This document shows positions 1 to 22,706 of a DNA stretch of 64,000 nt, piece by piece. Each line of letters starts with the position of its first letter. Position 1 is the stretch's first letter. The position numbers and the translations under genes were made by a program. The DNA lies in contig NZ_SMGQ01000013.1 in assembly GCF_004339095.1 (NCBI RefSeq), positions 136,352 to 200,351 on the forward strand. Reading direction: 5' to 3'. Below the pieces are notes generated by a model. That model saw nothing but the letters and a program-made list of their open reading frames with translations, was not told where the DNA came from and did not search any database. The stretch comes from Natranaerovirga hydrolytica (GTDB taxonomy: Bacteria > Bacillota > Clostridia > Lachnospirales > DSM-24629).

Positions 1-18
1 AGATGGAGGTGCATTTAC

Positions 19-291
19 ATGCCAACAATTAGACCAAGCTCAGACTTAAGAAACAAATATAATGAAGTATCGGAATTTTGTCATAAGAATTTAGAACCTG
101 TTTATATAACAAAAAATGGGAAAGGTGACTTAGCTGTTTTAAGCATTGAAGCATATGAAAGACTTGTGGGAAAATATGAACTAAATAAGTTATTAAATGA
201 AGGAATAGAAGATGTTAAGAATAATAAACTTCTGTCAGTAGAAGATTCTTTTAAAAGAATTAGAGAAGGTTTAGAAAATGAAAGAGTATAA
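19..291 (+). CDS. Phd/YefM-family type II antitoxin
   Basis: 90 aa. N-terminal region resembles Phd/YefM. RBS GGAGG sits 7 nt upstream. Its stop overlaps the start of the downstream toxin ORF. Confidence 0.65.
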   Translation: MPTIRPSSDLRNKYNEVSEFCHKNLEPVYITKNGKGDLAVLSIEAYERLVGKYELNKLLNEGIEDVKNNKLLSVEDSFKRIREGLENERV

Positions 292-592
292 AGTTACAAT
301 TACAGAGAAAGCAACAAAGGATATGTATGAAATTACTTCGTATATAGGTAATGAATTATTAGATATGCAGGCAGCAAATAGGTTGTTAGAAAAATTCAAA
401 GTATCTATTGTAAGCTTATCAAATATGCCTAAAAGACACTCATTATTACAAGATGAAGAATTAGCAGGTAGAGGTATTGGGAGAATAGTAGTGGATAATT
501 ATATAATTTTCTATATTTGTTCTGATAAAGATAAAGTAGTGAGATTGATTAGAGTATTATACCATAAAAGAGATTGGGTAACTTTGATATAG
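278..592 (+). CDS. RelE/ParE-family type II toxin
   Basis: 104 aa. Overlaps the upstream antitoxin by 14 nt. Size and C-terminal basic/aromatic pattern fit RelE/ParE. Confidence 0.65.
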   Translation: MKEYKVTITEKATKDMYEITSYIGNELLDMQAANRLLEKFKVSIVSLSNMPKRHSLLQDEELAGRGIGRIVVDNYIIFYICSDKDKVVRLIRVLYHKRDWVTLI

Positions 593-617
593 CTTGGTAT
601 CGTCCGCTGTCACCATC

Positions 618-735
618 ATATAACAAGATTATTCCCATTCACTACGTACATTCCTTCACTGGGTGCAAGCACCGTCTACGGAGAAGGGCTCTGCGTGTTC
701 AGATCAGGAACGTTGGGAATAACAAAACGTTATCT
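618..735 (+). repeat. attC-like site 1 (cassette recombination site, imperfect palindrome)
   Basis: ATATAAC (618-624) ... TTATTCCC (629-636) ... GGGAATAA (714-721) ... GTTATCT (729-735). The outer and inner boxes are exact inverse complements. The internal arms CATTCCTTCACTGG and CCAGATCAGGAACG pair imperfectly, leaving unpaired bases. Confidence 0.75.
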
Positions 736-822
736 GACATTCTCTATGTGCAAAATTTTAATGTATTTTGTAATAAGTTAATGGTATAATTAATAAAAGA
801 ATATATTTGGTGGGGTGAAATT

Positions 823-1002
823 ATGGGTCAAGCTAAAATGGATGCAATCGAAACTTTAAATAGACTGCCCGATGAAGCTTCTTGGGAAGAAATAATGTAT
901 GAATTATATGTTACAAAAAAAGTGAATCAAGCTAGAGAACAAGTTGCTAGAGGTGAATTTGTGACACATGAAGAAGCTAAAAAAAGATTGTTGAAATCAT
1001 GA
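823..1002 (+). CDS. small antitoxin-like protein (putative addiction-module component)
   Basis: 59 aa. The ORF is not in the supplied track because it is under 60 aa. RBS GGTGGGGTG. Its stop overlaps the ATG of the downstream RelE-like ORF (ATGA). Confidence 0.5.
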   Translation: MGQAKMDAIETLNRLPDEASWEEIMYELYVTKKVNQAREQVARGEFVTHEEAKKRLLKS

Positions 1003-1285
1003 AGATAATATGGTCTAACGATTCTTTAGGTGACGTAGATAGAATCAGAGAATATATTAGTCAAGATACGGAGTTTTATGCTCAAATTTTTGTTGAGAAG
1101 ATAATTCAGATAACAGAAAGATTAAAAAATTTCCAATGTCAGGAAGGGTTGTACCTGAGTTTCCAAATGAAAGTATTAGGGAAATTATATTTAGAACCTA
1201 TAGGATTATATATGAGATTACAGAAGAAAATATAATAATATTATCAGTTATACATGGAAGCAAATTATTAGATGACAGAGATTAA
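999..1285 (+). pseudogene. RelE/ParE-family toxin, frameshifted in an A6 run
   Basis: The N-terminal 44 aa are in frame 0. The C-terminus (PMSGRVVPEFPNESIREIIFRTYRIIYEITEENIIILSVIHGSKLLDDRD) is in frame -1. The junction is the A6 run at 1124-1129; an A7 would restore RLKKFPMSGRVVPEF. Confidence 0.6.
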
Positions 1286-1343
1286 ATGACATTATAGAGA
1301 TGGGCTATATGTCATTTTTTTTATGGACAAACAGTCGAACATC

Positions 1344-1434
1344 AGATAACAATGCATCGCCGTTAGCTTTTGCATGTGAAGACTGAAAAAGCACACCCTT
1401 TCACCAAGTGCGTCGGCGATGCGAACCGTTATAC
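1344..1434 (+). repeat. attC-like site 2
   Basis: AGATAAC-AAT-GCATCGCCG ... CGGCGATGC-GAACC-GTTATAC. The R and L boxes are perfect inverse complements. The centre is unrelated to site 1. Confidence 0.7.
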
Positions 1435-1545
1435 GCAATAACTAACTATTAACAAGAGAAAAATTGAGTAAGAACAATTTGTATCAGTAAGCATTTAAGG
1501 GTATTATTAGACTATAATATAATACAAAATGAAGGCGGGCGAACT

Positions 1546-2920: not shown

Positions 2921-2993
2921 AAGACCAGTGGACGTTGCAGATGCTGACTATTATGTGAAATAAGTAAACTGGTTTTTGATAGGGGGAAAGGTT

Positions 2994-3548
2994 ATGACAA
3001 TAATTAATGGTGAAAGAATCAACTTAAAATTTGCATCTATTGACCATATGAGAACTGTATATGATTTGCTTGTCGCTGAAGATATTAAAGATTTTATATT
3101 TAAGGATAATTATCCCGCACCAACATGGAAAGAATTTCAGGATGACGAAGTGGGTTATTTTAATGGTTGTGCAACAAAGGATGGAAATTACCTGTTGATT
3201 GAGTATAGGGGTGAAGTAGCAGGAAGTATCAGCTATGCTAATGGCTACGAAAAACGAAAATACTCTGAACTTGACATATGGTTATCTAGCAAGCATCTTG
3301 GGCTAGGGCTAGGAACTGAGGCTATTTTGCTTTTACGAGAATTTGTTCACAATGAATATGGTATAGATGAATTTATTATTAGACCATGGAAGAAGAATAT
3401 AAACGCGGTAAAAGCATATCACAAATGCGGATTTCATGAAGATACAACATTTGATATTAGCCAATACTACAGTGATGAAGATTTGGAAGAATATGGTGAT
3501 GGTGATTATGGAGTTGAAGAAACGCTAAATTTGGTTATGAGATATTAG
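2994..3548 (+). CDS. GNAT-family N-acetyltransferase
   Basis: Acetyl-CoA-binding motif HLGLGLGTE. RBS GGGGGAAAGG upstream of ATG 2994. Confidence 0.7.
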   Translation: MTIINGERINLKFASIDHMRTVYDLLVAEDIKDFIFKDNYPAPTWKEFQDDEVGYFNGCATKDGNYLLIEYRGEVAGSISYANGYEKRKYSELDIWLSSKHLGLGLGTEAILLLREFVHNEYGIDEFIIRPWKKNINAVKAYHKCGFHEDTTFDISQYYSDEDLEEYGDGDYGVEETLNLVMRY

Positions 3549-3576
3549 TATTTGACTGTTGATGCTTTCTGACTTT

Positions 3577-3693
3577 ACATAACAAGATTATTTCGGTTCG
3601 CTGACGCACATTCCTTCACTGGGTACAAGCACCGCCAAGGAGAAGGACTTTTCAGGTCTAGTTCAGGGACGTCACAAACACGAGCTGTTATCT
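3577..3693 (+). repeat. attC-like site 5
   Basis: ACATAAC-AAGATTATTTCGG ... CATTCCTTCACTGGGTACAAGCACC ... GTTCAGGGACGTC ... GTTATCT (3687-3693). Near-identical to site 1 at both ends. Confidence 0.75.
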
Positions 3694-3731
3694 GACATTA
3701 TTGATAGTATAGAAAGGAGCAAGATTGGAAT

Positions 3732-4214
3732 ATGATTAAGAGTAACAAAATTATTTTTTATACAGTTATTATAAGCATCATGATGTCTTTAATTAACAAT
3801 GTATTACCATTTTTTATTACTACTTATTATTTAGATAATGTAGAGAGATTGAATGGTATACTCTTTAGTATTGAGATAATAATTGCACTAATAGGATTTG
3901 TCTGCGTTGGGATATATATAATTAAAAAAGCAACATTTTCGGATGTAAGAAATGCAACTATAGTCTTTACAATGTACATTGCTATTGCCTTCGTTTTACA
4001 ACATTTCATACAAAGATTAATAGGGTATAGCTGGTTGCTGATACTTTTGTTTTTCCCTATAAGTATGTTTACAGCATTTCCTAAAATTATTATTTGGCAA
4101 ACTAAGAGTCCAATAATATTGTTTGTAATCAGTTCGATTTTATTTCCGTGCATATTTTTTGTAATAAAAGGAATAGCGATAAGTTTCCAAAGCTGGCGCA
4201 ATAACAACAGATAA
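3732..4214 (+). CDS. hypothetical polytopic membrane protein
   Basis: 160 aa with 4-5 hydrophobic helices. Confidence 0.4.
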   Translation: MIKSNKIIFYTVIISIMMSLINNVLPFFITTYYLDNVERLNGILFSIEIIIALIGFVCVGIYIIKKATFSDVRNATIVFTMYIAIAFVLQHFIQRLIGYSWLLILLFFPISMFTAFPKIIIWQTKSPIILFVISSILFPCIFFVIKGIAISFQSWRNNNR

Positions 4215-4227
4215 AAAGTACTCCAGT

Positions 4228-4530
4228 TCGCTTTGCATGAGAGGACTGTAAAGCACATCAGAGAAGTTAAGAGATGAATACTCAAATAGCCCCTATAATA
4301 TAAGTGTTTAAGAAAACCACATCCATATATTTTTGAATTGGCTATTTTAAAAATGGGATTTAAAGCAGATGATTAATGGTTCATTGGTGACTTATTTGAG
4401 TATGATATCATTGGTGCAAATTTTGTGCACAACAGCACCTAAAAGAGTGTTCTCAACATTCATCAGCAATTTGGGTCAAGCTTTGTGAGAGCTGATGGAC
4501 GTTGGAAACACTTGGAACATTAGCTGACAG
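4228..4530 (+). repeat. degenerate attC remnant(s)
   Basis: Fragments TTCGCT...GGACTG and GGACGTTGG...ATTAGCTGACAG resemble the two halves of the site-1 family. Confidence 0.3.
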
Positions 4531-4600
4531 AAAGCACTAGTTTGTAGATTTGCTTGTATTATTAGATTTTTCTTAAGTATATAGAATAGGAGGGAGTTTA

Positions 4601-5389
4601 ATGAATAAAATAGGAGTTATATTGGATTTAGAAGGAACATTAATCAGTAACGGTGAAGCATTATTAGGTTCAATTAAGCTGCTAGAATATTTAATGGAAA
4701 AGAATATTCCTTTTAGAATAATAACAAATACAGTATCAAAATCATGTAAAGAGTTATCCTTTGCGTTTCATAATGTAGGTATTGATATACCAGAGATCTA
4801 TTTTATAAACCCCATTGTTACAGTAAAAGGATTTTTATCTAAAAACCATATAGAATCGTTTTGGTTTGTTGGCTCGAATGATACTAAGAGTCAATTAGGA
4901 ATAGATGGAAAATATAAAGAAATTCCTGAATATATAATACTGTGTGATTTCGAAAACGTTGATTGTAACTATGAATTACTTAATAGGATATTTAGTTATA
5001 TACATAAGGGTTCAAAGTTGTTAACTATGTCACAGTCAAAATACTATTTATCAAAGAGTGGTCCTAAACTGGATACAGGTGCATTCTGTAGCATGTTTGA
5101 GAATATAACAGGAATCAATTCTATCTTATTTGGAAAACCATCTGATAAAATTTATCAAGAAGCAATTAGTCAAATGAATATTGAATCGAGTAAGATTATT
5201 GCTATAGGAGACGATGTTTTAACAGATATAAAAGGGGGCAATAAAATGAGTGCATATTCAATACTTGTTAAGAGTGGGAAGTATAAAAAAGATGATGAAA
5301 CTAAAATAAAGCCAAATAAAGTGGTTGAAAATTTGCTGGAAATAATACCTTTCTTGAAAAAAATAAACAATGAAAAAGATGTACTATAA
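4601..5389 (+). CDS. HAD-superfamily (IIA-like) hydrolase
   Basis: DLEGTL nucleophile motif near the N-terminus. C-terminal GDDVLTDIKGG. Confidence 0.6.
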   Translation: MNKIGVILDLEGTLISNGEALLGSIKLLEYLMEKNIPFRIITNTVSKSCKELSFAFHNVGIDIPEIYFINPIVTVKGFLSKNHIESFWFVGSNDTKSQLGIDGKYKEIPEYIILCDFENVDCNYELLNRIFSYIHKGSKLLTMSQSKYYLSKSGPKLDTGAFCSMFENITGINSILFGKPSDKIYQEAISQMNIESSKIIAIGDDVLTDIKGGNKMSAYSILVKSGKYKKDDETKIKPNKVVENLLEIIPFLKKINNEKDVL

Positions 5390-5487
5390 GAGTGGTAATT
5401 TACATTCAGTGTAGAAAAAGCTAGGTAGAAAGGGAGATAAAAATGATTGTATTTGGTTGTTTAGCAAGGCTTTTTAATAATAGTAGT

Positions 5488-5530
5488 AGCTCTTCAAGGT
5501 CCAGCATAGGAACGTCGGGAAATGTAATGT
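5488..5530 (+). repeat. partial attC (right arm only)
   Basis: GGTCCAGCATAGGAACGTCGGG matches the right arm GGTCCAGTTCAGGAACGTCGG. Confidence 0.4.
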
Positions 5531-5560
5531 GATATTCTATACAATAAGGAGGTTGTTACC

Positions 5561-6016
5561 ATGAAAAAGGTAATTTTGTTTTTATTAGGAGTTATTCCTC
5601 TTGTATTGGGTTTTCTAATACATACTTGGATGATGAAAAATCAAAATAGTGTTTTACCATTTAAATTAATAGGAATTATATTTCTTCTTTTTTGGGTATG
5701 GGTAGGATTTATAACTTGTAAATTTGAAAGAACCCCATTGAAATCAGCAATAATTGCGAACTCACTTGCATTTTTAATGCTTTTATTTATACTGTTTCAA
5801 GAAATAATATTGGGACGATATGGGGCAAATATGTTTGGAATTGTTCCACAATTGTATTACTTACCCTTGGTTAATATTTCTTCTTCCATTGTTGGATTGC
5901 TTTATTCTTTAATGGGCTGGGGAATGCAGGTTTCAGTAATAAGCTTAATGTCATTTTTGTTTATGTTTGGTTCTTATTACTTAGGAAGTTATTTCAAAAA
6001 GCAAAAAAACATATAG
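5561..6016 (+). CDS. hypothetical membrane protein
   Basis: 151 aa with 4 TM helices. RBS AGGAGG. Confidence 0.4.
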   Translation: MKKVILFLLGVIPLVLGFLIHTWMMKNQNSVLPFKLIGIIFLLFWVWVGFITCKFERTPLKSAIIANSLAFLMLLFILFQEIILGRYGANMFGIVPQLYYLPLVNISSSIVGLLYSLMGWGMQVSVISLMSFLFMFGSYYLGSYFKKQKNI

Positions 6017-6232
6017 TATGATAATAATGATATATTAGAGGGAACGGTGAGTGTCGGGAATGGCAGGAACATTAAGTGTCATTCCAATAATCTCATGGGT
6101 CTTCTCAATGATTAAATGGGCACAAGTCTAAGAGTAATCAAGAAAATCAATTCTTTAACCATAGTAGAATGGTTACGGAATTAAACAAGCCTAAGATTAT
6201 TAAAAAATAGATTTATTCATATGGGTTAATAT

Positions 6233-6318
6233 ATGAAATGAAATCGGATGAAGAAGTTGAAGTATTAGCGATTATACATACCCAAAGAAATTTTATATTG
6301 ACTGATAATGCTTAACAT
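6233..6318 (+). pseudogene. 3'-terminal remnant of a RelE/ParE-like toxin gene
   Basis: Translates to ...EVEVLAIIHTQRNFILTDNA*, resembling toxin C-termini. There is no upstream ORF body. Confidence 0.3.
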
Positions 6319-6491
6319 AAAAGTAGTTTCAGATTTACAAAGAGATGTGGGACTACCTTTTTTTGAAAAAAGTAAGTTGTAATGCTATGAAGTCAACAAT
6401 AATGTAAGTGTCAAAGGATTCCTGACTAAAAATATCCAGAATAAGAAAGGATTCTTTTTTATGGTAATGAAATTATGGTGTAAGGAGTAGA

Positions 6492-7130
6492 TTGGATTTG
6501 AAAATATTAGTTGGACAGCCTAAAAGAACAGAAGATTTATTTGAGTTAGAAAATGCTCTTAAAAAATATAAATGTAATTATGTACTCTTTCCTGAGGGCT
6601 ATATTAGTAATGAGTCATTGTTAGTAGAAGCTTGTGAACTCTCAAAAAAGTATAGGGTACCTATATTGTCAAGTTATTTATCAGACAAAGATCAAAGAGA
6701 TAGAGCTTGTGTGATAGATGAATTTGGAAAAATAGTTTTGAGAAGAAAAAAATCCTTAGTTGAAGGTCCACTGTTAAGTCCATCTAAGGCACTAGTAAAT
6801 AACACCCATATTGGATATCTTTTATGTTGTGAAATATTTTTAGAATATGAGAACTTGAATGGTGTACATATGCTTTTTAATCCAATTGGCGTTGGAATGT
6901 TTAGTGAAGAGCAGTTTGCGGAGTGGTCAGAAAGGGCAAAAAAGATAGCAATAGACTTAAAGTGTATAGTTTTGGGAACAAGTCATGGGGATGGATCTTA
7001 TAGAAATTGTGGTACATCAATACCTATAGCGTATGTTTATAATAAAGATGGAACTGAAATTTTTCTTAGTAAAAATGATACAAGAACTGTTATTGTTGAT
7101 TTGTCTAACAAAGAAGTATCTTATATTTAG
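6492..7130 (+). CDS. carbon-nitrogen hydrolase (nitrilase-superfamily) protein
   Basis: E-K-C triad context: FPEGY, RRKKS, LLCCEIF. Confidence 0.55.
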   Translation: MDLKILVGQPKRTEDLFELENALKKYKCNYVLFPEGYISNESLLVEACELSKKYRVPILSSYLSDKDQRDRACVIDEFGKIVLRRKKSLVEGPLLSPSKALVNNTHIGYLLCCEIFLEYENLNGVHMLFNPIGVGMFSEEQFAEWSERAKKIAIDLKCIVLGTSHGDGSYRNCGTSIPIAYVYNKDGTEIFLSKNDTRTVIVDLSNKEVSYI

Positions 7131-7173
7131 TTATTTGCTAGGGTGAGTGTTTCGAAGATTATGAGTCAACATC

Positions 7174-7289
7174 TTATAACAAAATGTCTCCATTCGCTAT
7201 GCCACCCCTTTACTGAGTCCAAGTACTACCTCTGATGAAGGGCTTTGTGGGTCCAGTTTAAGAAGGTGGAGAACAACAGAAAGTTAGAT
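7174..7289 (+). repeat. attC-like site 8
   Basis: TTATAAC (7174-7180) ... CCATTCGCT ... GGTCCAGTTTAAGAAGGTGG ... GTTAGAT (7283-7289), a perfect GTTRRRY. Confidence 0.7.
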
Positions 7290-7390
7290 GACATAGACTC
7301 TTCTTATCGAGTATTATTTTAGGGTTGATAGAAGAAAACATATTGCAAGTATTATATATGCTATATAATGTATATTAGGAGGAAATAGAA

Positions 7391-7912
7391 ATGAAAACTA
7401 AAAAATTGATTATAGCGTTATCAATACTTCTTGTAGTTGTACTTTATATCGGACTTTACTCAAATGGAAATATGGGTGTTTCTAGAAACAGATTAGAAAA
7501 AGATGCTCGTAAGAGTCAAGAAATAGATGCAACTTGGTTGGTTACTAAGGATGTAACGGATAAAATGGGAGCATTATTATTTTACAATAAAGAATTAAAT
7601 CAGCACACTTTTTCGGTATATTTGAAAAGAGATGGTTTTTCATACGGATATTTTTTTGGTGAAGGCGGTTCTTTAAGCTCTAGTGGTTCAGAAGTACAAG
7701 GCTTTTCATATCAAGATAAAGGAATGGCTTTGATTTCAATGAATACGAAAAATGTTGAAGAAATTACATTGAATGATGGGCAAAATATAGAAAGAATAAA
7801 AATAAATCCACTTGAACCTTTTGCAATAATTATTCCCCACAACGTTGATGTGGTACAACTGTATGATTCAAATGGCAAGAGTATTTCGATAGATAATATT
7901 TGGGCTTATTAA
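7391..7912 (+). CDS. hypothetical N-terminally anchored or secreted protein
   Basis: 173 aa with an N-terminal TM/signal segment. Confidence 0.4.
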   Translation: MKTKKLIIALSILLVVVLYIGLYSNGNMGVSRNRLEKDARKSQEIDATWLVTKDVTDKMGALLFYNKELNQHTFSVYLKRDGFSYGYFFGEGGSLSSSGSEVQGFSYQDKGMALISMNTKNVEEITLNDGQNIERIKINPLEPFAIIIPHNVDVVQLYDSNGKSISIDNIWAY

Positions 7913-8025
7913 GCACCAAGTGCAGTTGTGCGAAGGCTTATCAATTTCATAAATCTGAGAAACATTATATGACAGATGTTGCTGGTCTAAAAGCATAGTT
8001 TAACGAACAGATTGGAGCGTATATA

Positions 8026-8190
8026 ATGGTTATTAAGGAAATTAAGGATGATTTAGTTAAATCAGACATTACTGAAAAAATACTGAGAGAGTTACCGGAA
8101 TGGTTTGGTAATGAGAAGCCTCTGTTGGAATACATAGAAGCGTTGGCTTTTTTCCACTTGAGGAGTTTACAGAAACATGGGATGTAGATA
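8026..8190 (+). pseudogene. orphan N-terminal fragment of a GNAT-like gene
   Basis: 54-aa ORF, MVIKEIKDDLVKSDITEKILRELPEWFGNE..., that ends prematurely. Followed by a partial attC. Confidence 0.3.
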
Positions 8191-8252
8191 ATCCTTGCTT
8201 AATAATGGTGAAAAGTCTCATCTGACAAATGATAATGAAAAAGTAAAACAGA

Positions 8253-8292
8253 AGGGTTATGAGGTCCAGTTTAGAATATGATACGATAGGTA
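8253..8292 (+). repeat. partial attC (right arm)
   Basis: GAGGTCCAGTTTAGAAT matches the family right arm. Confidence 0.4.
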
Positions 8293-8362
8293 ATATTGGA
8301 CACAAGTTTAATTTTAAAACCAGTAATATTTCTATAATTGCATATCAAGGAGGGTAACAACA

Positions 8363-8857: not shown

Positions 8858-8924
8858 AAGAAGTATCTGTATAGTTAAGTAGTTGGCAGAGGTTTTACTA
8901 GGGATCATTTCCGTGTTCAACACC

Positions 8925-9025: not shown

Positions 9026-9081
9026 TGGGAAAACTAGTACTTTGTGTTATCTAGAAAATATATTTGAGAGGAAATAATGAT

Positions 9082-13267: not shown

Positions 13268-13288
13268 TATATTTAGTGAATATCAGCT

Positions 13289-13430: not shown

Positions 13431-13496
13431 AACATATAGGGCAAAGGTATTAAAAATAGATTTGGTAATATATGAAAATGGAAAAGAGGGGATAAA

Positions 13497-14015: not shown

Positions 14016-14384
14016 TAGAGAAGACATAACTAAATTTTCATCGATGAATAGTTAATAGTTGTTTTATAGAAAAAATATATTGAAATATTTACAATTTTAC
14101 TTAAAAATATGATAAAATAAGATAGTATAATATATACGCAAGGACTGAGAAATATAATGAGTCCAGTAAAATAAAAAGCGATTTAACATATAACAATACT
14201 ACTTAAAGGTGCCTCTTGGGAGGAAATCATGTAAATTGAAGACATAAAAAAATAAATATTATTAGAATCTTACATTGTGGACGAGATATGACAAAAATAA
14301 AAATACATCCGTGGGAAATAACATAAAGTTCTCATGGGTGTTTTTTTATATATTTCTTAAGGGGTTATGTGATTTCCATCATGC

Positions 14385-14475
14385 AACAATCTTGTTCACA
14401 GGGGAAAAGAACTGCCTACACAGAAGGGTTCTATGGTTCAGTTCAGGAACGTCGTGAACAGCAAAATATTATAAG
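14385..14475 (+). repeat. attC-like site 14
   Basis: GGTTCTATGGTTCAGTTCAGGAACGTCGTGAACAGCAAAATATTATAAG parallels GGTCCAGTTCAGGAACGTCGG...AACAAAACGTTATCT. Confidence 0.5.
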
Positions 14476-14653
14476 TAATGGTGATATTGGTATCTTGAAA
14501 GGAAGTGAGCTGTGTGAAAAGAATAAAACGAATTAAATTCTCAGTGCAGTTAAGATAATCTGGTAGCAGATTGTACTGAGATTATAAATGTGTTATCAGT
14601 TAACTGCACTGCTTTTTATTAAAAATAAATAATAAAAAGGAGTACAAGTTATA

Positions 14654-15418
14654 ATGAAAAATAAGGAATTAAGAAAATATTGGTTGTTGGAAGAGCAAAG
14701 AAGTTTTAAAGGTTGGGATTTTTCATATATTAAAAATAGAACAGTAGAAGAACCTTTACCATGGGATTATGATAAGATTATTCGTCAACACTTGAAGACA
14801 AATCATATTGTGTTGGATATGGGTACAGGAGGCGGTGAATATCTGCTAACCTTAAAACATCCATATACAAAAACTTATGTTACAGAAGGATATCCTCCAA
14901 ATGTTGCATTATGCAATGAGAAGCTAACACCCTTAGGAATAACGGTGAAACAAGTTTTTGGTGATAACAAATTGCCTTTTAAAGACGGTATGTTTGATAT
15001 AATAATCAATAGGCATGAATCTTTTGACATTAATGAAGTGCATAGATTGCTTAAGCCAAAGGGTTTGTTTGTTACTCAACAGGTTGGAGGGTTAAACAAT
15101 AAAGAATTATCAAAATTTCTAATAAAAGGGTTTAGAGAAATTATTAGTAGTGGTTATACCTTGGAAAATACCCAAGTTTTAATTAAAAGCAAAGGTTTTT
15201 CTATATTGAAGGCTGAAGAGTATTTTCCTAGGGTTAAATTTTTAGATGTAGGAAGCCTGGTTTATTTAGCTAAAATTATTGAATGGGAGTTTCCTAACTT
15301 CTCTGTTGAAAAATGCTTTGAACAACTATGTGCGCTACATTCTACAATTGAAAAACAAGGTTTTGTAGAAAGTAAACAACATCGATTTATTATTGTTTCA
15401 CAAAAAATAAAGGCGTAA
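14654..15418 (+). CDS. class I SAM-dependent methyltransferase
   Basis: Motif I VLDMGTGGGEYL. Confidence 0.65.
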   Translation: MKNKELRKYWLLEEQRSFKGWDFSYIKNRTVEEPLPWDYDKIIRQHLKTNHIVLDMGTGGGEYLLTLKHPYTKTYVTEGYPPNVALCNEKLTPLGITVKQVFGDNKLPFKDGMFDIIINRHESFDINEVHRLLKPKGLFVTQQVGGLNNKELSKFLIKGFREIISSGYTLENTQVLIKSKGFSILKAEEYFPRVKFLDVGSLVYLAKIIEWEFPNFSVEKCFEQLCALHSTIEKQGFVESKQHRFIIVSQKIKA

Positions 15419-15439
15419 ACAAATCGACACAACTTATAA

Positions 15440-15526
15440 GAATATATCTCTGTGCATTACACACATTCCAGAGCCTAAGTGAATACTTCTAAGGCTCTGG
15501 AAGGCCAGAGATACAAAACGTTAGGC
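15440..15526 (+). repeat. attC-like site 15 ending in canonical core GTTAGGC
   Basis: CATTCCAGAGCCTAAG-tgaata-CTTCTAAGGCTCTGGAAGG palindrome. Then AAAAC-GTTAGGC (15520-15526). Confidence 0.6.
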
Positions 15527-15589: not shown

Positions 15590-16200
15590 ATGGTGAAGTT
15601 AATACTTGAAACGTCAAATTTAATAGATTACTTAGCAGAAGATCATAACATTGATTTTAATCATTTAGTAATTAGAGAAAAAGTTAAAGAGCTTTATCAA
15701 GAGTGTGAAAGTGACATTTCAAAAATAAAAAAGGCATATGAATTTGTTCGAGATGAGATAGCTCATTCATGGGATATAGGAAGTACACGTATTACAAAAA
15801 GAGCATCAGAGGTATTGGTTTATAAAGAAGGTATTTGCTATGCAAAGTCTAATTTGTTTGCAGCCTTATTGCGTGCAGTCAATATACCAACAGGGTTTTG
15901 TTATCAAAGACTGACTATTGGTAATGCACCTGAAACAGGCTATTGTATCCATGCCTTGAATGCAGTGTATTTATCGGAATTTCATAAATAGATTCGGTTA
16001 GATACAAGAGGCAATAAAGAAGCAATAAATGCCCAATTTTCAATTGATACAGAACAATTAGCCTTTCCTGTACGCAAATATTATGATGAAAAAGATTACA
16101 TAACAATCTATAAGAATCCAAATGAGGCAACAATGGAAACTTTAAGTAAAAATGAAAATTGTTTAGAGATGTATAAATATCATTTACCTACAGAAATTTA
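15590..16200 (+). pseudogene. transglutaminase-like cysteine peptidase gene with in-frame TAG (15989-15991)
   Basis: C (GICYAKSN) and H (YCIHALN) lie before the stop. The D (IRLDTRGN) continues in the same frame after TAG. The stop sits where related sequences often have Trp. Confidence 0.5.
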
Positions 16201-16486
16201 ACAATAGGTTGTTGGCGTCTTGTTTTGGCCTAAAAGAGTGTTGCTGACGTGGATAGGAACAAGGAAGGGTGTCCACGTGAGTAACACCCAGAACCTTATA
16301 TAAAATTCAGCTAGGCATAGTTCTTAATGGGCTATTAAAACAATAATACCAAAATGTAATTGATTTAAAAATTAAATTCTACTATTCGTGGAATGGTCTC
16401 AATATAGAAGTCAAATATAAGTAGTTTGCCAAAGAAGAAACAATTATACTATAATTTAAACATTAAACAAGAACTAGGGAGGAATT

Positions 16487-17320
16487 ATGATGGATAGCAA
16501 AAAAGTGGGAAGCTTCATATCAGAATTGAGAAAAAAGAAGAATATGACACAACAAGAATTAGGAAATAAATTAAATGTTACAAATAAAGCTGTTTCAAAA
16601 TGGGAGACCGGTGATGGATATCCGGAAATAACGACTATTCCTGCTTTAGCAGAAGTATTAGGCGTATCCACAAGCGAATTGTTAAATGGTGAAATAAAAG
16701 GTAAAGGTATGAATGATGAAAAAGAAGTAGTTAAAAAATTTAATATAAATTTAAAAATGATCAATAAGTTAAAAGAAGGTAATAACACTAATAGGATACT
16801 ATTCGTCATCACTTCAGCATTTTTAATTGGGATTTTTACATGTATGTTATGTGATTATTTAATAAACAAAGCGTTTGGATGGTCTTTATATCCATTGGGG
16901 GCATTATTAATAATATGGTTAATTATAATTCCTATTTTTAAGCTTAAAAAGCACAGAATAATTATTTCATTTACTGTATTTGCACTTTCAGTAATACCCT
17001 ATTTGTTTTTGATAGAATATATAGCCGGAGAGAAAAGGTGGGTAATGCCACTAGCTTTGCCCATAGCAATATTAAGTATTATAGCCTTATATATTGTTTT
17101 ATATCTTTTTATTTATACTCAAATTAGAAAATTATATGTTACTGCAATAAGCTTTATAATTTTTGGAGTAGGTATCAATATTGCTCTGGGGCAGATTATA
17201 GGTGAGTTTGTTAATCATCAACAGAATACGTCAACTTTTATAAACGTATTTCTATCAATTTTTATAGCTTGTATTATAGTGATGTTTGAATATAAAAGAA
17301 CAAGAAAAAGTAGTGAATAA
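16487..17320 (+). CDS. XRE-family HTH regulator fused to a membrane domain
   Basis: N-terminal HTH_XRE (QQELGNKLNVTNKAVSKWE). Four TM helices follow. Confidence 0.7.
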   Translation: MMDSKKVGSFISELRKKKNMTQQELGNKLNVTNKAVSKWETGDGYPEITTIPALAEVLGVSTSELLNGEIKGKGMNDEKEVVKKFNINLKMINKLKEGNNTNRILFVITSAFLIGIFTCMLCDYLINKAFGWSLYPLGALLIIWLIIIPIFKLKKHRIIISFTVFALSVIPYLFLIEYIAGEKRWVMPLALPIAILSIIALYIVLYLFIYTQIRKLYVTAISFIIFGVGINIALGQIIGEFVNHQQNTSTFINVFLSIFIACIIVMFEYKRTRKSSE

Positions 17321-17536
17321 TTGATATTTAATTTAAAGTTAATGAATCAATGAAGTGAATAGTCGATATTAAAATATTAAGATAACCAATATATTATGAA
17401 GAAAAGAGATTTGTTCACCCTTATCTTAAGAATATAATTAAGAAACATATCATAATGATCATAAGCATATGGGTACGATACCAGAATGTTAGAGGATTAT
17501 CTAGACCATTAAAAAATGAAAGGTTGAGGTAGGGAT

Positions 17537-18295
17537 ATGATTGAATACCTAGGAAGAGAAGTTGAGGTAAAAATAGATAGGCCATTAGGAAGTAAGCATC
17601 CAGATCACGGTTTTGTTTACCCCATTAATTATGGATTTATTGAAGGAACCAAAGCCGCAGATAATGAAGAAATTGATGCATATGTTCTTGGTATATTTGA
17701 ACCAATAAGTACTTATAGAGGGAAAGTTATAGGAATAATTAAGAGAAATAATGATGTTGAAGATAAGTTAATAGTAGCTAACGATTTAAATAGTTATGAT
17801 AAGTATCAAATAAAAGCTTTAACAGAATTTCAAGAAAGATTTTTTGATACAGAAATAATAACCTACGATTATTTAAGAAGTTCAATTCGAAATACTGTTC
17901 GGGGATTAATAAAAAAAGGCAATAAGATTCTTGTACTAGAAGAAAAGTATCAAGGAGAAAAATATTATTTTTTACCTGGTGGAGGAATTGAGTATTTAGA
18001 GAAAAGTCAAGAAGCTTTATATCGAGAAATGAAAGAGGAATTGAATGTAGATATAGTAGAGAGTCAATTAATGCACGTAATAGACAATATTTTTGAAGCA
18101 AACGGAATAAAAGCACACGAGGCTACACAAATATATGAGGTTAAAGTAAGTGGAATTGAAGAATTGAAGGATGGGGATAGAATGGATAAAGATTTAATGC
18201 CCAGTAAAATTCGGTGGATAGATATTGAAGAATTAAGAAAAGAAATTGCACCATTGTATCCGGAAGAATTGAAGGGGTTACTGTCTAGGGATTAA
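17537..18295 (+). CDS. inorganic pyrophosphatase-like domain fused to NUDIX hydrolase
   Basis: N-terminus resembles family I PPase. The C-terminus has a Nudix box GGGIEYLEKSQEALYREMKEELNV. Confidence 0.55.
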   Translation: MIEYLGREVEVKIDRPLGSKHPDHGFVYPINYGFIEGTKAADNEEIDAYVLGIFEPISTYRGKVIGIIKRNNDVEDKLIVANDLNSYDKYQIKALTEFQERFFDTEIITYDYLRSSIRNTVRGLIKKGNKILVLEEKYQGEKYYFLPGGGIEYLEKSQEALYREMKEELNVDIVESQLMHVIDNIFEANGIKAHEATQIYEVKVSGIEELKDGDRMDKDLMPSKIRWIDIEELRKEIAPLYPEELKGLLSRD

Positions 18296-18431
18296 CGGCA
18301 TACAAAGAGGGTTATCGATCTAGGCGAGAAATTGAATAAAGTGTAAAAAGGGCTGATTGGAAGGCATCACCAATGTCAATGTTAGGCAAAATAACCACAG
18401 TGTTTACAATAAGAAAAATTGGAGAGTGAGT

Positions 18432-19181
18432 ATGATTATAAGAATAGAAGAATTATCTATGAATGCATGGCCATCATTACAAACTCATTTATATGATGGT
18501 TGGATTTTGAGATTTTCTCAAGGATATACCAAAAGAGCCAATTCTATAAATCCAATATACTCATCTGATGCAAACATAGAAGAAAAGATTAAGAACTGTG
18601 AGAAAACATATTTGACTAAAGGCTTGCCAATAATTTATAAGTTAACTAAAGCCTGTTATCCTAAAAATCTTGATAAAATTTTAGAAAGTAAAGGATATAA
18701 GAAGATAGATGAAACATCTGTACAAATCTTAAATATAACAGAAGATTATTCTTTAGAAAAAGTTAGTGGATTGGATATTGAATATGAGTTTACACAAGAC
18801 TGGATTAATTCGTTTGTAGAGTGTTCTAACACTCAAAATGAGTCAACCATTGGAATCATGACGCAGATGCTAAAGAACATTATAGGAGATAAGATATGTG
18901 TCAAAATGAAACTGGATAATCAAATAGTAGGCTGTGGATTTGGAGTAATTGAAGAAAACTATATGGGTATATTTGATATAATCGTAAGAGAAGAAGACAG
19001 AGGACAAGGGATAGGAAAAGCAATAATGCAAGAAATATTAAAAGAAGCCCAAAAAAGAAATGTTTGTAAAGCTTATTTACAAGTAGTAGTTGGAAATTCT
19101 GTAGCTGAGAGTCTATATAATAAACTTGGCTTTAGAGAAAAATATAGATATTGGTATAGAATTAAAAATAGTTCAATTTAG
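18432..19181 (+). CDS. GNAT-family N-acetyltransferase
   Basis: C-terminal GNAT fold with QGIGKAIMQE. RBS GGAGAG before ATG 18432. Confidence 0.65.
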   Translation: MIIRIEELSMNAWPSLQTHLYDGWILRFSQGYTKRANSINPIYSSDANIEEKIKNCEKTYLTKGLPIIYKLTKACYPKNLDKILESKGYKKIDETSVQILNITEDYSLEKVSGLDIEYEFTQDWINSFVECSNTQNESTIGIMTQMLKNIIGDKICVKMKLDNQIVGCGFGVIEENYMGIFDIIVREEDRGQGIGKAIMQEILKEAQKRNVCKAYLQVVVGNSVAESLYNKLGFREKYRYWYRIKNSSI

Positions 19182-19303
19182 TGTACGGGTATAGTTATTG
19201 ATTTATCCTCAATATTAAGTATATGATGTATAGAATTTTGTTAGAGTTAAGTCTATGAATCATATAATAACTATGACGGAAAAAGCAAGAAAGGAAGTGT
19301 TTT

Positions 19304-20077
19304 ATGATTACCATTTATGATTGGTTTGGCTATGAATTACCCATAAAAGAACGTTATCGGTTAATAAAAGAAGCTGGATTTGATGGCGTTTTATTATGGT
19401 GGAGTGATGGCTTTGGTCGGAACGATTATCGCAACGGGCCACAAATTGCGAGGGAAGTGGGGCTTTTTATAGAAAATATCCACACCCCAGTCCAAAATCA
19501 AAACAACCTCTGGCTTGACAATCTGGACGGTGAAACCTTAACCGATTGTTATTTGCAATGTGTTTCAGATTGCGCAGAATTCGAAATTCCCACAATGGTG
19601 GTGCACCTGCCCAACGAAGACTATCCATATAATGAGTTGGGACTGGATAGAATTAAGCGAATCACTGAAAAAGCTGAACAGCTTGGTGTCAATGTTGCAC
19701 TAGAGAATTTACGGAACCTTACCAATTTGGAATATGTGCTGGAGCAAGTGGATTCCTTACGTATAGGGTTCTGTTATGACTGTGGGCATCACTACCGCTA
19801 CTATCCGGGTAAAGATTTATTATCTAAGTATGGCTCCCGGGTGATGGCATTACATTTGCATGATAACGGCGGAGAGTATGAGCAACACCGGTTACCCTTT
19901 GATGGTACGATTGATTGGTCTGTAGCCATGAAAAAAATTGCAGAAACGGGTTATTCTGGTGCCACTGCAATAGAGGCTATGAATTGGGATTATAAGGATT
20001 TATCGGCAGAAGAGTTTTTACAAGAAGCGTTTCAGCGAGCAAAAAGGCTGGAAGCCTTAAAACTTTATAATCCATGA
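19304..20077 (+). CDS. sugar phosphate isomerase/epimerase (xylose-isomerase-like TIM barrel)
   Basis: 257 aa. Noticeably more GC-rich than its neighbours. Confidence 0.55.
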   Translation: MITIYDWFGYELPIKERYRLIKEAGFDGVLLWWSDGFGRNDYRNGPQIAREVGLFIENIHTPVQNQNNLWLDNLDGETLTDCYLQCVSDCAEFEIPTMVVHLPNEDYPYNELGLDRIKRITEKAEQLGVNVALENLRNLTNLEYVLEQVDSLRIGFCYDCGHHYRYYPGKDLLSKYGSRVMALHLHDNGGEYEQHRLPFDGTIDWSVAMKKIAETGYSGATAIEAMNWDYKDLSAEEFLQEAFQRAKRLEALKLYNP

Positions 20078-20104
20078 AAACAAAAATAATTTACAACAAA
20101 CTTA

Positions 20105-20210
20105 TTCTCGTTTGGTGACGCAATTCCTTCATTAGGTGGAAGCACCCCTAAGAAAAAGGACTACGGGGGTCCATTTTAGTAAGTTGGGAATAACAAAACG
20201 CTGGTGGATT
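20105..20210 (+). repeat. attC-like site 17
   Basis: TTCTCGTTTGGTGACGCAATTCCTTCATTAGGTGGAAGCACC ... GGGTCCATTTTAGTAAGTTGGGAATAACAAAACG. Confidence 0.6.
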
Positions 20211-20282
20211 AAACCCTGTAAGTTAATTGGGTACGACAGATGAAAAAGTCAAATAAATAAAGATTACTGGGAGGAAAATTGT

Positions 20283-20888
20283 ATGATGGAATCAGTTATA
20301 AGTCGAGGAATCATAGAATCTGTGATTTATCTATTCATCATGGCAGGGTTGGTTGTTATTCACGAATTTGGACATTTGTTAGCAGGATTTATGCTGGGTA
20401 TACCTAAAAAACGAATGTCCATACAATTTGTTGATAGGAAACCTGAGAAAGGTTTAATGCGTTCTTTAGTATTTTCAATTAGTCCTCACATCGTTCTTTT
20501 AGACAATAAAAACAGTAAAGTTTCGCCTTCACCTAATGAAATGGAAAAGTATGTTGGAATTCTTGAACAGTTTATTCCATCTGAGAAAAAAATGTTTTGG
20601 TTTGTAGCAGGAGGACATACTTTTGAATTAATTATAGTATTGAGTATGGCCATCGTTTCAATTATAAGCAACCACAACTTACTTTTTGAAATGTCATTTA
20701 GAATAACACATATGTCTCTTGTATTAGATATTATTTACTTGTTAATTGATTTGTTCTCTGCTCTTAAATCAAAAGAACTAACAGGTGGAGATTTTTCAGG
20801 GCAATGGGCAATATCTCCAATTAAAACCATCATATTTTATGCATTCTATTTTACGACCCTTATATCTGCATGGATTCTTTTAAAATAG
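20283..20888 (+). CDS. membrane protein with HExxH (M50-like) motif
   Basis: HEFGH within the first TM region. 201 aa. Confidence 0.4.
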   Translation: MMESVISRGIIESVIYLFIMAGLVVIHEFGHLLAGFMLGIPKKRMSIQFVDRKPEKGLMRSLVFSISPHIVLLDNKNSKVSPSPNEMEKYVGILEQFIPSEKKMFWFVAGGHTFELIIVLSMAIVSIISNHNLLFEMSFRITHMSLVLDIIYLLIDLFSALKSKELTGGDFSGQWAISPIKTIIFYAFYFTTLISAWILLK

Positions 20889-20929
20889 ATATAGAAGTTG
20901 TAAGCTATTCAATTTTCACCAAAGTGCTC

Positions 20930-21005
20930 TATCTTTTAACGGATAAAGGCGTTGAGGGTTTAGTTTGGAAAGGTCGAGAACAACAAAAAAATTAAGTGAT
21001 ATTGC
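20930..21005 (+). repeat. attC-like remnant
   Basis: GGTTTAGTTTGGAAAGGTCGAGAACAACAAAAAAATTAAGTGA parallels the site-8 right arm. Confidence 0.45.
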
Positions 21006-21057
21006 CTTTATATTTAAGCGTTATGCTTTAAGGGCATTATCAAAAAAATAGGAGGAT

Positions 21058-21636
21058 TTGATGAAGAAATTAATGTTTTTAATGCTAATTATAGTATTTA
21101 TATTTGTAGGATGTAGTAAAGAAGAGGGCGTTGTGACATCAAGTAAACTTTTTCAAGGTGATGCTAGAAGGCTAGAACCCCATTTAGATATGATTACAGG
21201 CTGTGTAGAGGTCAAGTATAAAGGTGATAAGCAAAATTTAAGTCTTAAATATGAAATATGGGAGGATGGACAACTAAAAGAATCTCAAGATTCACTATCA
21301 GTGTCTATTAACGATAATCAATTTGATGGAGAAGTAAGTCTTTCTTTAAAAGAGAACATGGATACGAATTTAGAAAAAATAGATTCTATGAAACTGAAAC
21401 TGGTTATTAGTGATAGCACTGGGTACAGATCTACAAACTTCACTATAGAAAGTTTTGATCCAAGTTTTGGTTTTGGGCCTGTTGAACTCTATGAAGCAGT
21501 CAAAATAAAGGATAATGAAGAGGTTGCTGTCTGGGGATTAACGGCATACAAAGATGTTTATCAATCTGGACGAGAAATTGAAGAAAGTGTAAAAAAGGCC
21601 GATTGGGGATTTATTCTTAAAGTATATTTTGATTAG
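21058..21636 (+). CDS. hypothetical lipoprotein
   Basis: Lipobox FVGC. 192 aa. Confidence 0.45.
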   Translation: MMKKLMFLMLIIVFIFVGCSKEEGVVTSSKLFQGDARRLEPHLDMITGCVEVKYKGDKQNLSLKYEIWEDGQLKESQDSLSVSINDNQFDGEVSLSLKENMDTNLEKIDSMKLKLVISDSTGYRSTNFTIESFDPSFGFGPVELYEAVKIKDNEEVAVWGLTAYKDVYQSGREIEESVKKADWGFILKVYFD

Positions 21637-21756
21637 GTAACAATCTATGGGTTTAGAGACAAAATCAGCAAATTATAGTACAATAATTTGAAGTATAAGT
21701 ATATTTAAAGTTGGTGTGTTTAAATTTACAAATATTAAAAAGGAGAAAAGCTAAAA

Positions 21757-22364
21757 TGCCATATATTTTTATTCATGGGCTTGGACAAAATTCATCAAGT
21801 TGGGACAAAATGCTTTCCTTGATGACGCAACCTATTCCTACAGTATGCCCAGACTTGTTTGGACTCCTCAATAACAAAGAAGTCACTTATGAGAACTTGT
21901 ACGATGCCTTTGCAGAGTATTGCAATAATATTTCTGGCCCCCTCAATCTGTGCGGGCTTTCTTTAGGAGGCGTTCTTGCGTTGAATTATGCAATAGATTA
22001 TCCTACGAAAGTACAGTCACTGGTGCTAATCAGTGCACAGTATAAAATGCCTAAAAAGTTACTTAAATTTCAAAATATTATTTTTCGCTTGATGCCAGAG
22101 GTTGCTTTTAAAAGTATGGGCATTAAAAAGAGGGATTGCATTGGATTAATAAGTTCTATGATTGATTTAGATTTTACCAAGAAATTGAACAATATATCTT
22201 GTCATACTTTAATTATTTGTGGTTCAAAAGATGGTGCCAATAAGAAAGCAGCAAAAAAGTTAGCCCATAACATATCAAAGTCCCAGCTTCATTTAATAAA
22301 GAAGACAGGCCATGAAGTGAACATAGAAGCCCCTGAGAAATTAGTAAGCATCTTAAGATTATAA
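21757..22364 (+). CDS. alpha/beta-hydrolase fold protein
   Basis: HGLGQN oxyanion region. GLSLGG nucleophile elbow. Confidence 0.6.
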
Positions 22365-22399
22365 GCATACCCTGTACGTTAAAATAAGAACATCTTATG

Positions 22400-22560
22400 A
22401 ACCGAGAGAGTCCATAAGATTAATATATTTTTGCTACAGTCCAACAAGATAAGTGGAAGATTTTATAGTAGGTGGGATTTTCAGTAAGTAAGGCTTAGAA
22501 AACGGATCATAGAGCGTTTTGACATTACCAGATAAGAAAATATTAAGCGTAATCGTTAGG
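22400..22560 (+). repeat. last degenerate attC-like remnant (array boundary)
   Basis: Short palindromes, then GCGTTTTGACATTACC (compare CGTTATCTGACATTC), then GTTAGGT. Confidence 0.3.
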
Positions 22561-22706
22561 TAGTAGACTAACTAGACAGTCAGTGAAAGTTGAAGGGATT
22601 GAGCTTCTAAATATGGTGATTGAAAAGAGTCATATTTAGGAGCAATAAAAAACAATAGGGTTTTGCCATTCCAACGAAAAATTGGAGAAAATGGGAGGAA
22701 AATTAA

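Follow-up and report, generated by a model that had tools for sequence, protein, structure and literature searches.

Integrons are the textbook device for gene capture and reshuffling, yet surveys, in their passages on Firmicutes, find them essentially missing from that phylum (PMC9024848, PMC4889954). One such passage counts one complete integron although Firmicutes account for more than one fifth of all complete genomes (PMC9024848). The Firmicutes part of the 2022 survey with IntegronFinder 2.0 names this complete integron, in Limnochorda, together with "a few CALIN" (clusters of attC sites lacking an integron integrase), and the 2016 survey found no complete integron in the phylum. There is no accepted reason for this absence (PMC4889954). 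We analyzed a stretch of 64,000 nucleotides from Natranaerovirga hydrolytica (contig NZ_SMGQ01000013.1, positions 136,352 to 200,351), hereafter called the window, in which an earlier note had proposed, for a Firmicute, an array of integron-type cassettes carrying attC-like sites. The proposal was borne out by covariation of the paired boxes inside the sites, by a complementarity rule linking neighboring sites, by an exact cassette duplication, and by a recombinase with an attI-like site at the heads of related arrays. The window from position 1 to about 21 kb is very probably the promoter-distal, largely fossilized part of a chromosomal cassette array of the integron kind, whose units, judging from the sequence, would have been captured through a recombinase related to IntI and Xer. 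The system is best filed under integron logic (integrase, attI, and cassettes ending in attC), with a non-canonical integrase and non-canonical sites.

A profile of the repeat family was built from the copies themselves, and matches were accepted at E<=1e-3. Eight matches were obtained in the window (614-742, 2274-2395, 3572-3700, 7169-7296, 8920-9035, 14395-14479, 20091-20210, and 20939-21005). All eight are on the + strand; the 43 kb to their right (21-64 kb) yielded no match. A permissive search for the R and L boxes by regular expression was discarded, having matched shuffled DNA just as often; a stricter scan and position-weight matrices, one for each arm of the site, were used afterwards. 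Matrix matches of at least 12 bits were taken as strong, and these were confined to the + strand between 1 and 16 kb (5' arms at 618, 1344, 3577, 7174, and 8925; 3' arms at 729, 1428, 2383, 2950, 3687, 7283, 11711, and 15520). Shuffled sequence yielded about 1.5 weak single-arm matches per strand and no complete site. The boxes quoted in the earlier note (ATATAAC, AGATAAC, and ACATAAC; GTTATCT, GTTAGAT, GTTAGGC, GTTGTCT, and GTTGAGT) were all present, but its figure of at least 25 cassettes with sites had to be lowered to about 19 recognizable sites or remnants, most of them decayed, counting those read by eye. Four sites were complete according to the matrices, and only those at 618-735 and 1344-1434 retained both boxes and a perfect L stem.

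The same repeats were found elsewhere. A 24-nt core of the repeat center occurred in seven other genomes, including Clostridium magnum, Anaerovirgula, Natronincolaceae, Sporosalibacterium, and Tissierellales, and a looser 21-nt version occurred in 17 metagenome contigs. In these related loci the copies were co-oriented and 1-3 kb apart, each lying 10-130 nt after an open reading frame (ORF) on the same strand. The layout of an integron, co-oriented cassettes each made of an ORF and a 3' recombination site, was thus seen both in the window and in the related loci. The arrays of different genomes shared this architecture and carried different genes.

The anatomy of the repeats was examined in 61 distinct complete sites of 91-217 nt, with the arms compared in a fixed register. 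The order of elements was constant: R'' (nnnTAAC), a 4-nt spacer, an 8-nt L'' box, a variable center, a conserved (A)CGTC directly before the 8-nt L' box, a 6-nt spacer, and R' (GTTAKRY), after which GACAT often followed. TAAC and GTTA were 95-100% conserved, as expected of the inverse-core and core boxes of attC sites. The L boxes formed Watson-Crick pairs at 81% of the eight positions, with three to four pair types per position and 37 different octamers, compared with 42% for shuffled partners (maximum 49%) and 24-37% for shifted registers. Pairing ended sharply at both edges, so that the L boxes are conserved in structure and free in sequence, as in attC. RNAalifold on a MAFFT alignment of whole sites recovered just a 4-bp stem and was set aside; the alignment had placed the arms in two registers, and the poor result is attributed to misalignment of the variable center. 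The sites also differ from the dif sites of Xer/dif modules (IMEX, pdif), 28-bp duplexes with two 11-bp arms around a central region of 6-8 bp, in being hairpins of 91-217 nt.

In the folded strand, an asymmetric internal loop separates the R stem from the L stem, beyond which two hairpins branch off at a three-way junction. No conserved bulge or extrahelical base was found in the L stem of the 61 sites, which comprised eight contiguous pairs, and the unpaired bases were located at the three-way junction. The earlier note had regarded the repeats as attC sites by definition and had proposed folding their bottom strand as a check. The boxes and the paired L boxes agreed with this view, but the extrahelical bases expected of attC sites were missing and a three-way junction was found. 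Non-Watson-Crick L pairs read on the top strand were more often A.C than G.T (23 versus 9, p=0.02), and the bottom strand was the more stable in 46 of the 61 sites; these two biases are indirect evidence and favor folding of the bottom strand of the DNA over a sense RNA. In one subfamily (window 649-728 and L002-L008 among the related loci, for example L004 7379-7499 and L007 1387-1514), the center was nearly identical, CATTCCTTCACTGGGTGCAAGCACC ... GTCCAGTTCAGGAACGTC, across at least seven genera of different families, with freely varying L boxes. Either a recent spread of cassettes between taxa or a sequence-specific role of the hairpin would account for it.

Neighboring sites were found to be linked by what we call the chain rule, in which the four variable bases of R' in one site (n-1) are compared with those of R'' in the next (n). 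They were perfectly complementary in 37 of 48 junctions, against 8.6% for random partners, and none of 20000 permutations reached 37; the two boxes of one and the same site matched perfectly in only 7 of 57 cases. Three junctions of the window follow the rule: GTTATAT, to the left of the window, is followed by ATATAAC at 618, GTTATCT at 729 by AGATAAC at 1344, and ATTATGT at 2950 by ACATAAC at 3577. A further one, GTTATCT at 3687 to AGATAAA at 4208, was read by eye. This is the pattern expected under crossover at G|TT, where the next cassette starts with the last six bases of R', which pair with its R''; the genes would therefore have entered as circular cassettes. The chain rule is, at the level of sequence comparison, the decisive evidence for reading the locus as a cassette array.

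A second line of evidence came from Candidatus Clostridium radicumherbarum (L027), where a GNAT cassette has been duplicated over 887 nt at 100% identity. The duplication extends from 4 nt before GTTATAC to the GTTA of the following box, and its flanks are unrelated; the copies have 13 differences, all in the upstream site. These limits imply that the mobile unit is an ORF together with its downstream site, bounded by GTT boxes. The crossover point of attC, G|TT, is thus reflected both in the 37 junctions and in the duplication boundaries.

No tyrosine recombinase was detected in the 64-kb window by tblastn with three recombinases as queries, confirming what the earlier note had said about an integrase. 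In the related loci, however, arrays were headed by such an enzyme. It was first seen at two metagenome loci, with about 360 aa, just upstream of the array and in the same orientation, and was subsequently recognized at the head of co-oriented arrays in L014, L025, L026, L027, L030, and L031, as a fragment of its 3' end preceding the array in L006, and on a plasmid (L032). Its length across the related loci was 350-390 aa. In Tindallia californiensis (L026, FNPV01000007.1), Candidatus Clostridium radicumherbarum (JBJHZY010000003.1), and Clostridium sp. OS1-26 (CP133264.1), the order was housekeeping genes, recombinase, and then short same-strand genes with sites between them; Selenihalanaerobacter shriftii (Halanaerobiales) showed the same recombinase-array arrangement, and for another family member the contig stops directly behind the recombinase gene. 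L032 is the Chryseobacterium plasmid NZ_CP041688.1; behind its full-length homologue (41% identity) come short genes on the same strand, with sites in which three junctions in a row fit the chain rule. The recombinase gene stood on the cassette strand in all related loci, whereas the earlier note had expected it on the minus strand. A region lying 70-190 nt after the recombinase stop codon contained an imperfect palindrome of 12-13 nt, CGACAT repeats, and a GTTAKRY box, and the chain rule held from this box into the first site in L025, L026, L027, L030, and L031, giving these related loci an attI-like site. The palindrome of L026 (about 11135-11160) reads GCGAACCTTGGTTCGC, which presumably fits the Gram-positive LexA (Cheo) box CGAAC-N4-GTTCG; the other genomes have a different palindrome sequence. 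Canonical intI genes are under SOS control.

The best PDB match of the recombinase, by sequence and by fold, was the Vibrio integron integrase VchIntIA (2A3V), followed by archaeal XerA. The alignment to 2A3V fell into two pieces; IntI residues 173-238 (66 aa) had no counterpart, and 24 aa (residues 252-275) stood in their place. The additional domain specific to IntI, the I2 helix insertion between the catalytic K and HxxR, is accordingly absent. A canonical IntI, as the earlier note had anticipated, was not what headed the related arrays: TIGR02249 gave 211-223 bits against a cut-off of 265, in two stretches with the middle missing, and NF040815, the NCBIfam XerA/integron-integrase model, was passed with 239 bits (cut-off 220). 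The catalytic R, K, HxxR, H, and Y residues were invariant. The insertion of VchIntIA reportedly holds the extrahelical bases of its site, and for this reason the missing insertion and the missing extrahelical bases fit each other. The first 66 residues or so form a small beta/alpha domain, which matched HARP (PF07443) in 32 of 55 members (best E=3.9e-6). By comparison with the HARP domains of SMARCAL1, which bind branched DNA, we suggest that the HARP-like N-terminal domain may read folded or branched site DNA. More than 7700 relatives were found at E<1e-30, under the NCBI name "site-specific tyrosine recombinase/integron integrase". A published recombinase classification calls the insertion "not fully conserved" in its integron-like subgroup. 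A description of arrays linked to such recombinases was not found in the literature searched, and absence there is no proof of novelty.

In the mechanism that we propose, each unit would be a gene or a toxin-antitoxin pair with a downstream imperfect palindrome of 90-220 nt. Units would enter singly, as circles, through a tyrosine recombinase cutting at or beside the G|TT of R', and because crossover occurs there, the first six bases of a cassette would pair with its own R''. By analogy with the related arrays, the enzyme would be a relative of integron integrases and Xer with 350-390 aa, encoded at the array head on the cassette strand, with the attI-like site directly behind its stop codon. 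Without the IntI insertion, it would apply its HARP-like N-terminal domain to folded or branched DNA, and the substrate would be single-stranded, probably the bottom strand. For the window, the recombinase gene would lie to the left; we infer catalysis by an array-heading recombinase of this kind from the related loci. Gram-positives thus appear to have their own overlooked version of integrons. We lean, by a little over even chances, toward a broader reading, namely a second, old integron lineage whose IntI-sister integrase never acquired or has lost the insertion that binds extrahelical bases and whose HARP-like domain would recognize branched attC hairpins without such bases. Such a lineage would be widespread in Bacillota (Clostridia and Halanaerobiales) and on Bacteroidota plasmids, and would have been missed because integron finders require the IntI-specific domain.

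The window might instead be an ordinary CALIN, its canonical attC sites left by, or served in trans by, a canonical IntI elsewhere, with the Xer-like recombinase beside the related arrays being incidental. The architecture of R and L boxes and the cargo do match canonical integrons, the Firmicutes part of the IntegronFinder 2.0 survey reports a few CALIN, and no integrase lies in the window. A CALIN is taken as at least two attC sites without an integron integrase within about 4 kb, but the array of the window runs off its left end. Against this explanation, one recombinase family occupies the same position and orientation at array heads in seven loci, in different orders and in a second phylum, and R'' of the first site is complementary to the box just behind the stop codon of that recombinase. 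In addition, extrahelical bases, on which canonical IntI depends, are missing from the sites, and no canonical IntI was found in the 31 related loci. This explanation is therefore considered unlikely. A genomic island integrated whole by the adjoining tyrosine recombinase, with repeats produced by tandem duplication and homologous recombination, would explain why the recombinase sits at the island edge beside housekeeping genes, why one breakpoint between contigs falls inside a site, and why the window contains internal duplications. It is nevertheless very unlikely, since unrelated genes each carry a site whose L boxes differ and yet pair, since the chain rule between neighbors cannot be created by tandem duplication, and since the genomes share architecture rather than genes.

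Hairpins behind co-transcribed genes, one subfamily of which shares its center among seven genera in the manner of an RNA motif, could also suggest a structured RNA or repeats of the REP (repetitive extragenic palindromic) or MITE (miniature inverted-repeat transposable element) kind, acting as stabilizers in 3' untranslated regions, terminators, or selfish hairpins, without any cassette mobility. The earlier note had named a riboswitch or noncoding RNA family, or REP elements in both orientations, as outcomes that would overturn its proposal. Neither was seen in the sequences covered here: the repeats had no Rfam match at gathering thresholds or at E<=5, the sites contained no T tracts, terminator-like sites were not commoner than in shuffles, and the window copies lay on one strand, confined to the array and absent from the other 43 kb, rather than dispersed. 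Moreover, the mismatches favor wobble pairing of the antisense strand, and neither an RNA nor a MITE explains the chain rule or the exact duplication bounded by GTT. An RNA or dispersed-repeat origin has thus been largely refuted and is extremely improbable.

Several observations weigh against the integron-kind cassette array itself. The later junctions of Tindallia obeyed the chain rule in only 2 of 5 cases. L018 and L025, 99.6% identical over 3.9 kb, diverge in the center of a site and not at a box, and because the breakpoint lies inside a site this exchange looks more like homologous than site-specific recombination. The recombinase is absent from the window, its link to the array resting on other genomes, and the eight contexts sampled come from the very large family of relatives mentioned above. 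Finally, because only 2 of about 19 sites are fully intact and eight have lost the G of GTT, the window copy may be inactive.

Of the window's approximately 19 sites, 8 had another base in place of the first G of the GTT box (A in six, C in two; boxes at 2383, 2950, 4519, 6068, 9025, 14472, 16317, and 20993), with TTA kept; almost every site in the other loci retained GTT. Loss of the presumed crossover base could reflect selection locking cassettes in place or could arise as a side effect of the reaction. Decay was also evident from broken L stems, missing 5' arms, and pseudogenes (a nitroreductase at 9988-10716 and a HAD fragment at 12334-12404), and the window copy looks like the old, distal end of an array.

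The units of the window array all lie on the + strand. Cassette 1 (1-735) begins left of the window and encodes a Phd antitoxin (19-291) and a ParE toxin (278-592; Pfam), followed by an intact site at 618-735 (R'' ATATAAC, L TTATTCCC/GGGAATAA, R' GTTATCT; profile E=1e-37, matrix score 56). Cassette 2 (730-1434) contains small ORFs at 823-1002 and 999-1235 (weakly ParE-like) and the other intact site, at 1344-1434 (R'' AGATAAC, L CATCGCCG/CGGCGATG, R' GTTATAC), with a bottom-strand fold of z=-4.3. Cassette 3 (1429-2389) carries a Fic/DOC protein (1546-2274) and a site at 2274-2389 with a degenerate 5' arm and R' CTTATCC, in which the G is lost. A 67-aa ORF (2519-2722) makes up the coding part of cassette 4 (2384-2956), whose degenerate site spans about 2846-2956 (L CATCTGCA/TGCAGATG, R' ATTATGT; 3' arm 13.4 bits, 5' arm by eye). 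In cassette 5 (2951-3693), a GNAT acetyltransferase (2976-3548; Pfam) is followed by a site at 3577-3693 with a broken L stem and R' GTTATCT; its R'' ACATAAC is complementary to the preceding xTTATGT. Cassette 6 (3688-4525) holds a 160-aa ORF (3732-4214) and a long, degenerate site at about 4208-4525 (R'' AGATAAA, R' ATTAGCT), recognized by eye only.

The next unit (4520-5540) encodes a HAD-family hydrolase (4601-5389; Pfam) and ends in a 3'-half site remnant (5494-5535) that matched the profile at 5494-5522 with E=0.008-0.014. Two ORFs without a family (5561-6016 and 6492-7130) form the unit 5561-7289, in which a remnant 3' arm (about 6050-6074, ATTAAGT) precedes a complete site at 7174-7289 (R'' TTATAAC, L stem with a 1-nt bulge, R' GTTAGAT). 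The unit 7284-9031 contains ORFs at 7391-7912 and 8363-8857, a remnant at about 8255-8290, and a site at 8925-9031 (R'' ACCAAAC, L TATCTCTG/GGAGATA, R' ATTATGG). Between 9064 and 11717 lie ORFs at 9064-9906 and 10833-11663, a nitroreductase of the TM1586 type split into 9988-10269 and 10276-10716 (pseudogene; Pfam), and a 3'-half site at 11664-11717 (R' GTTGTCT; 3' arm 15.2 bits). The two ORFs of this nitroreductase represent a frameshifted pseudogene, and an intact gene of the nitroreductase family (22707-23228) stands just to the right of the array. An SH3-domain protein (11837-12205) and the HAD gene fragment (12334-12404) share the unit 11837-12567, which ends in a weak 3' arm (TGTAGCC, ending at 12567). 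This 71-nt fragment is 80% identical to 4663-4733 of the HAD hydrolase cassette.

The unit 12581-13410 consists of an ORF (12581-13267) and a degenerate site at 13289-13410 (R' GTTGAGT), read by eye, whose arms no longer pair. It is followed by two methyltransferase units. The first (13497-14484) carries a PEMT-like gene (13497-14015) and a site at about 14381-14484 (L CTTGTTCAC/GTGAACAG, R' ATTATAA; profile E=3e-11); the second (14654-15526) carries a methyltransferase gene at 14654-15418 (Pfam) and a site at 15436-15526 (L TATCTCTG/CAGAGATA, R' GTTAGGC, degenerate R''; 3' arm 21.1 bits, bottom-strand fold z=-5.9). The long unit 15590-20210 begins with a transglutaminase-like fragment (15590-15991) and a possible remnant site at about 16200-16323 (CTTATAT), continues with HTH-DUF6320 (16487-17320), NUDIX (17537-18295), GNAT (18357-19181), and TIM-barrel (AP_endonuc_2, 19304-20077) genes (Pfam), and ends in a site at 20091-20210 (R'' TTACAAC, R' lost; profile E=3e-25). 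An M50-like ORF (20283-20888) and a last 3'-half remnant (20939-21011, ATTAAGT) form the unit 20283-21011, the right-hand limit of recognizable sites. Two short ORFs without a site, at 21058-21636 and 21711-22364 (an alpha/beta hydrolase), occupy 21058-22364, and their membership in the array is uncertain. The segment 21516-21606, at the 3' end of the first of these, is 88% identical to 18270-18360, the end of the NUDIX cassette and its downstream spacer.

All substantial ORFs between 19 and 22364 were on the + strand and encoded 50-280 aa, in agreement with the run of short + strand ORFs over about 22.7 kb first described for this region; the minus-strand ORFs there were short and overlapped them. 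The G+C content was about 31% across the whole window, without a compositional break at the array. Right of 22.7 kb, ordinary chromosomal genes follow (nitroreductase, DHFR, a two-component system, GerM, and a formate transporter), with no recombinase among them. The repeats had been said to stop at about 22.7 kb. None does occur beyond that point in the window, but because the last recognizable remnant ends at 21011, the right edge of the array lies somewhere between 21.0 and 22.7 kb. At the other end, a Logan contig from N. hydrolytica reaches 120 bp further leftward and starts with another 3' arm ending in GTTATAT, indicating that the array continues beyond the left end of the window. The cargo comprises toxin-antitoxin pairs, Fic, GNATs, HAD, NUDIX, methyltransferases, and pseudogenes (Pfam) and is typical of sedentary chromosomal integrons. 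A promoter consensus scan of the array found no enrichment and was uninformative. The gaps from R' to the next start codon, 20-215 nt, leave room for cassette-borne promoters, and such promoters may be present in some cassettes, probably those with toxin-antitoxin pairs. At 736-822, upstream of the second cassette, lies a good match to a promoter (TTGTAA, 17 nt, TGGTATAAT).

Several features of the related loci were also recorded. In Clostridium magnum (L002 1497-2790), a lone AbiH (abortive infection) gene is preceded by a partial 3' arm and followed by a complete site and is apparently a lone cassette outside any array; an Xer-like tyrosine recombinase 3 kb away was set aside as a member of a different, ordinary Xer-like family (27% identity). 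L025 contains, inside its array, a second recombinase-like ORF of 201 aa (6360-6962, the same as L018 1149-1751), cassette-like and directly behind a site, which matches only the N-terminal half of Xer-type enzymes. Sites in L005 (3127-3193) and L019 (856-948) end in mid-center and are followed by unrelated DNA, which in L005 includes ORFs resembling a putative insertion sequence (IS) transposase; sites may be insertion targets. On the Chryseobacterium plasmid, an IS110-family transposase gene (13260-14261) lies on the opposite strand directly after the 5' arm TGGTAAC at 13216, and a group II intron reverse-transcriptase gene (15726-17042), likewise on the opposite strand, lies directly after the 5' arm CAGGTAA at 15677. 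The same plasmid has four copies (10110, 12205, 14586, and 17655) of a gene-less unit of about 175 nt that starts with TTGGGAAAAATCG and has a perfectly paired 12-bp L stem. Each copy lies just upstream of a gene, and the layout could be that of an empty cassette bearing a promoter.

A cassette system that follows integron logic with a different integrase architecture would change the picture of Firmicutes; if the broader reading of a second, old lineage is true, the absence of integrons from Gram-positives is largely a detection artefact. The system would offer a natural experiment on recognition of attC hairpins without the I2 domain and without extrahelical bases, and would be informative on how IntI arose from Xer-like ancestors. 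It would also open a large unexplored pool of cassettes in anaerobes, including toxin-antitoxin, Fic, and AbiH-type defense genes, and might yield a cassette-shuffling tool compatible with Gram-positives. For annotation, genes named "site-specific tyrosine recombinase/integron integrase" in Clostridia that precede short same-strand genes deserve to be checked for arrays.

Among described systems, the Vibrio cholerae superintegron, with its VCR attC sites, resembles the present array in forming a long one-directional series of short accessory genes and toxin-antitoxin pairs. More generally, chromosomal integrons likewise have one imperfect palindrome of 90-200 nt per gene with RYYYAAC/GTTRRRY boxes, paired L boxes, an unpaired spacer, and a branched center; their sites are alike within an array, boundaries fall at G|TT, R'' matches the first bases of the cassette, and an attI-like site adjoins the integrase. 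Unlike them, the sites described here have no extrahelical bases in the L stem and have spacers of 4 and 6 nt, the integrase of the related arrays lacks the IntI insertion, has a HARP-like N-terminal domain, and is co-oriented with the cassettes, and the hosts are Bacillota and, in one case, a Bacteroidota plasmid. IS1111-attC elements occur in canonical integrons. The IS110 placement on the Chryseobacterium plasmid echoes these elements. The group II intron placement there resembles that of the group IIC-attC introns, which have attC sites of canonical integrons as their targets (PMC3001079).

Integrons of the Treponema type ("inverted integrase") resemble the related arrays in having the integrase on the cassette strand at the head of a chromosomal array. 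The Treponema IntI has the canonical extra domain and is found by integron-specific profiles, whereas the recombinase of our arrays falls below the TIGR02249 cut-off. These integrons have been described previously (PMC3607928). Xer recombinases (archaeal XerA and XerC/D) have the same core size and, like the enzyme described here, no insertion, but they lack its additional N-terminal domain and act at one 28-bp duplex dif site per replicon, in contrast to the dozens of hairpin sites that bound genes here. The window itself, a cluster of attC-like sites without an integrase, has the appearance of a CALIN; unlike CALIN, the related arrays are not orphaned, being accompanied by a cognate-looking recombinase that integron-specific profiles would reject.

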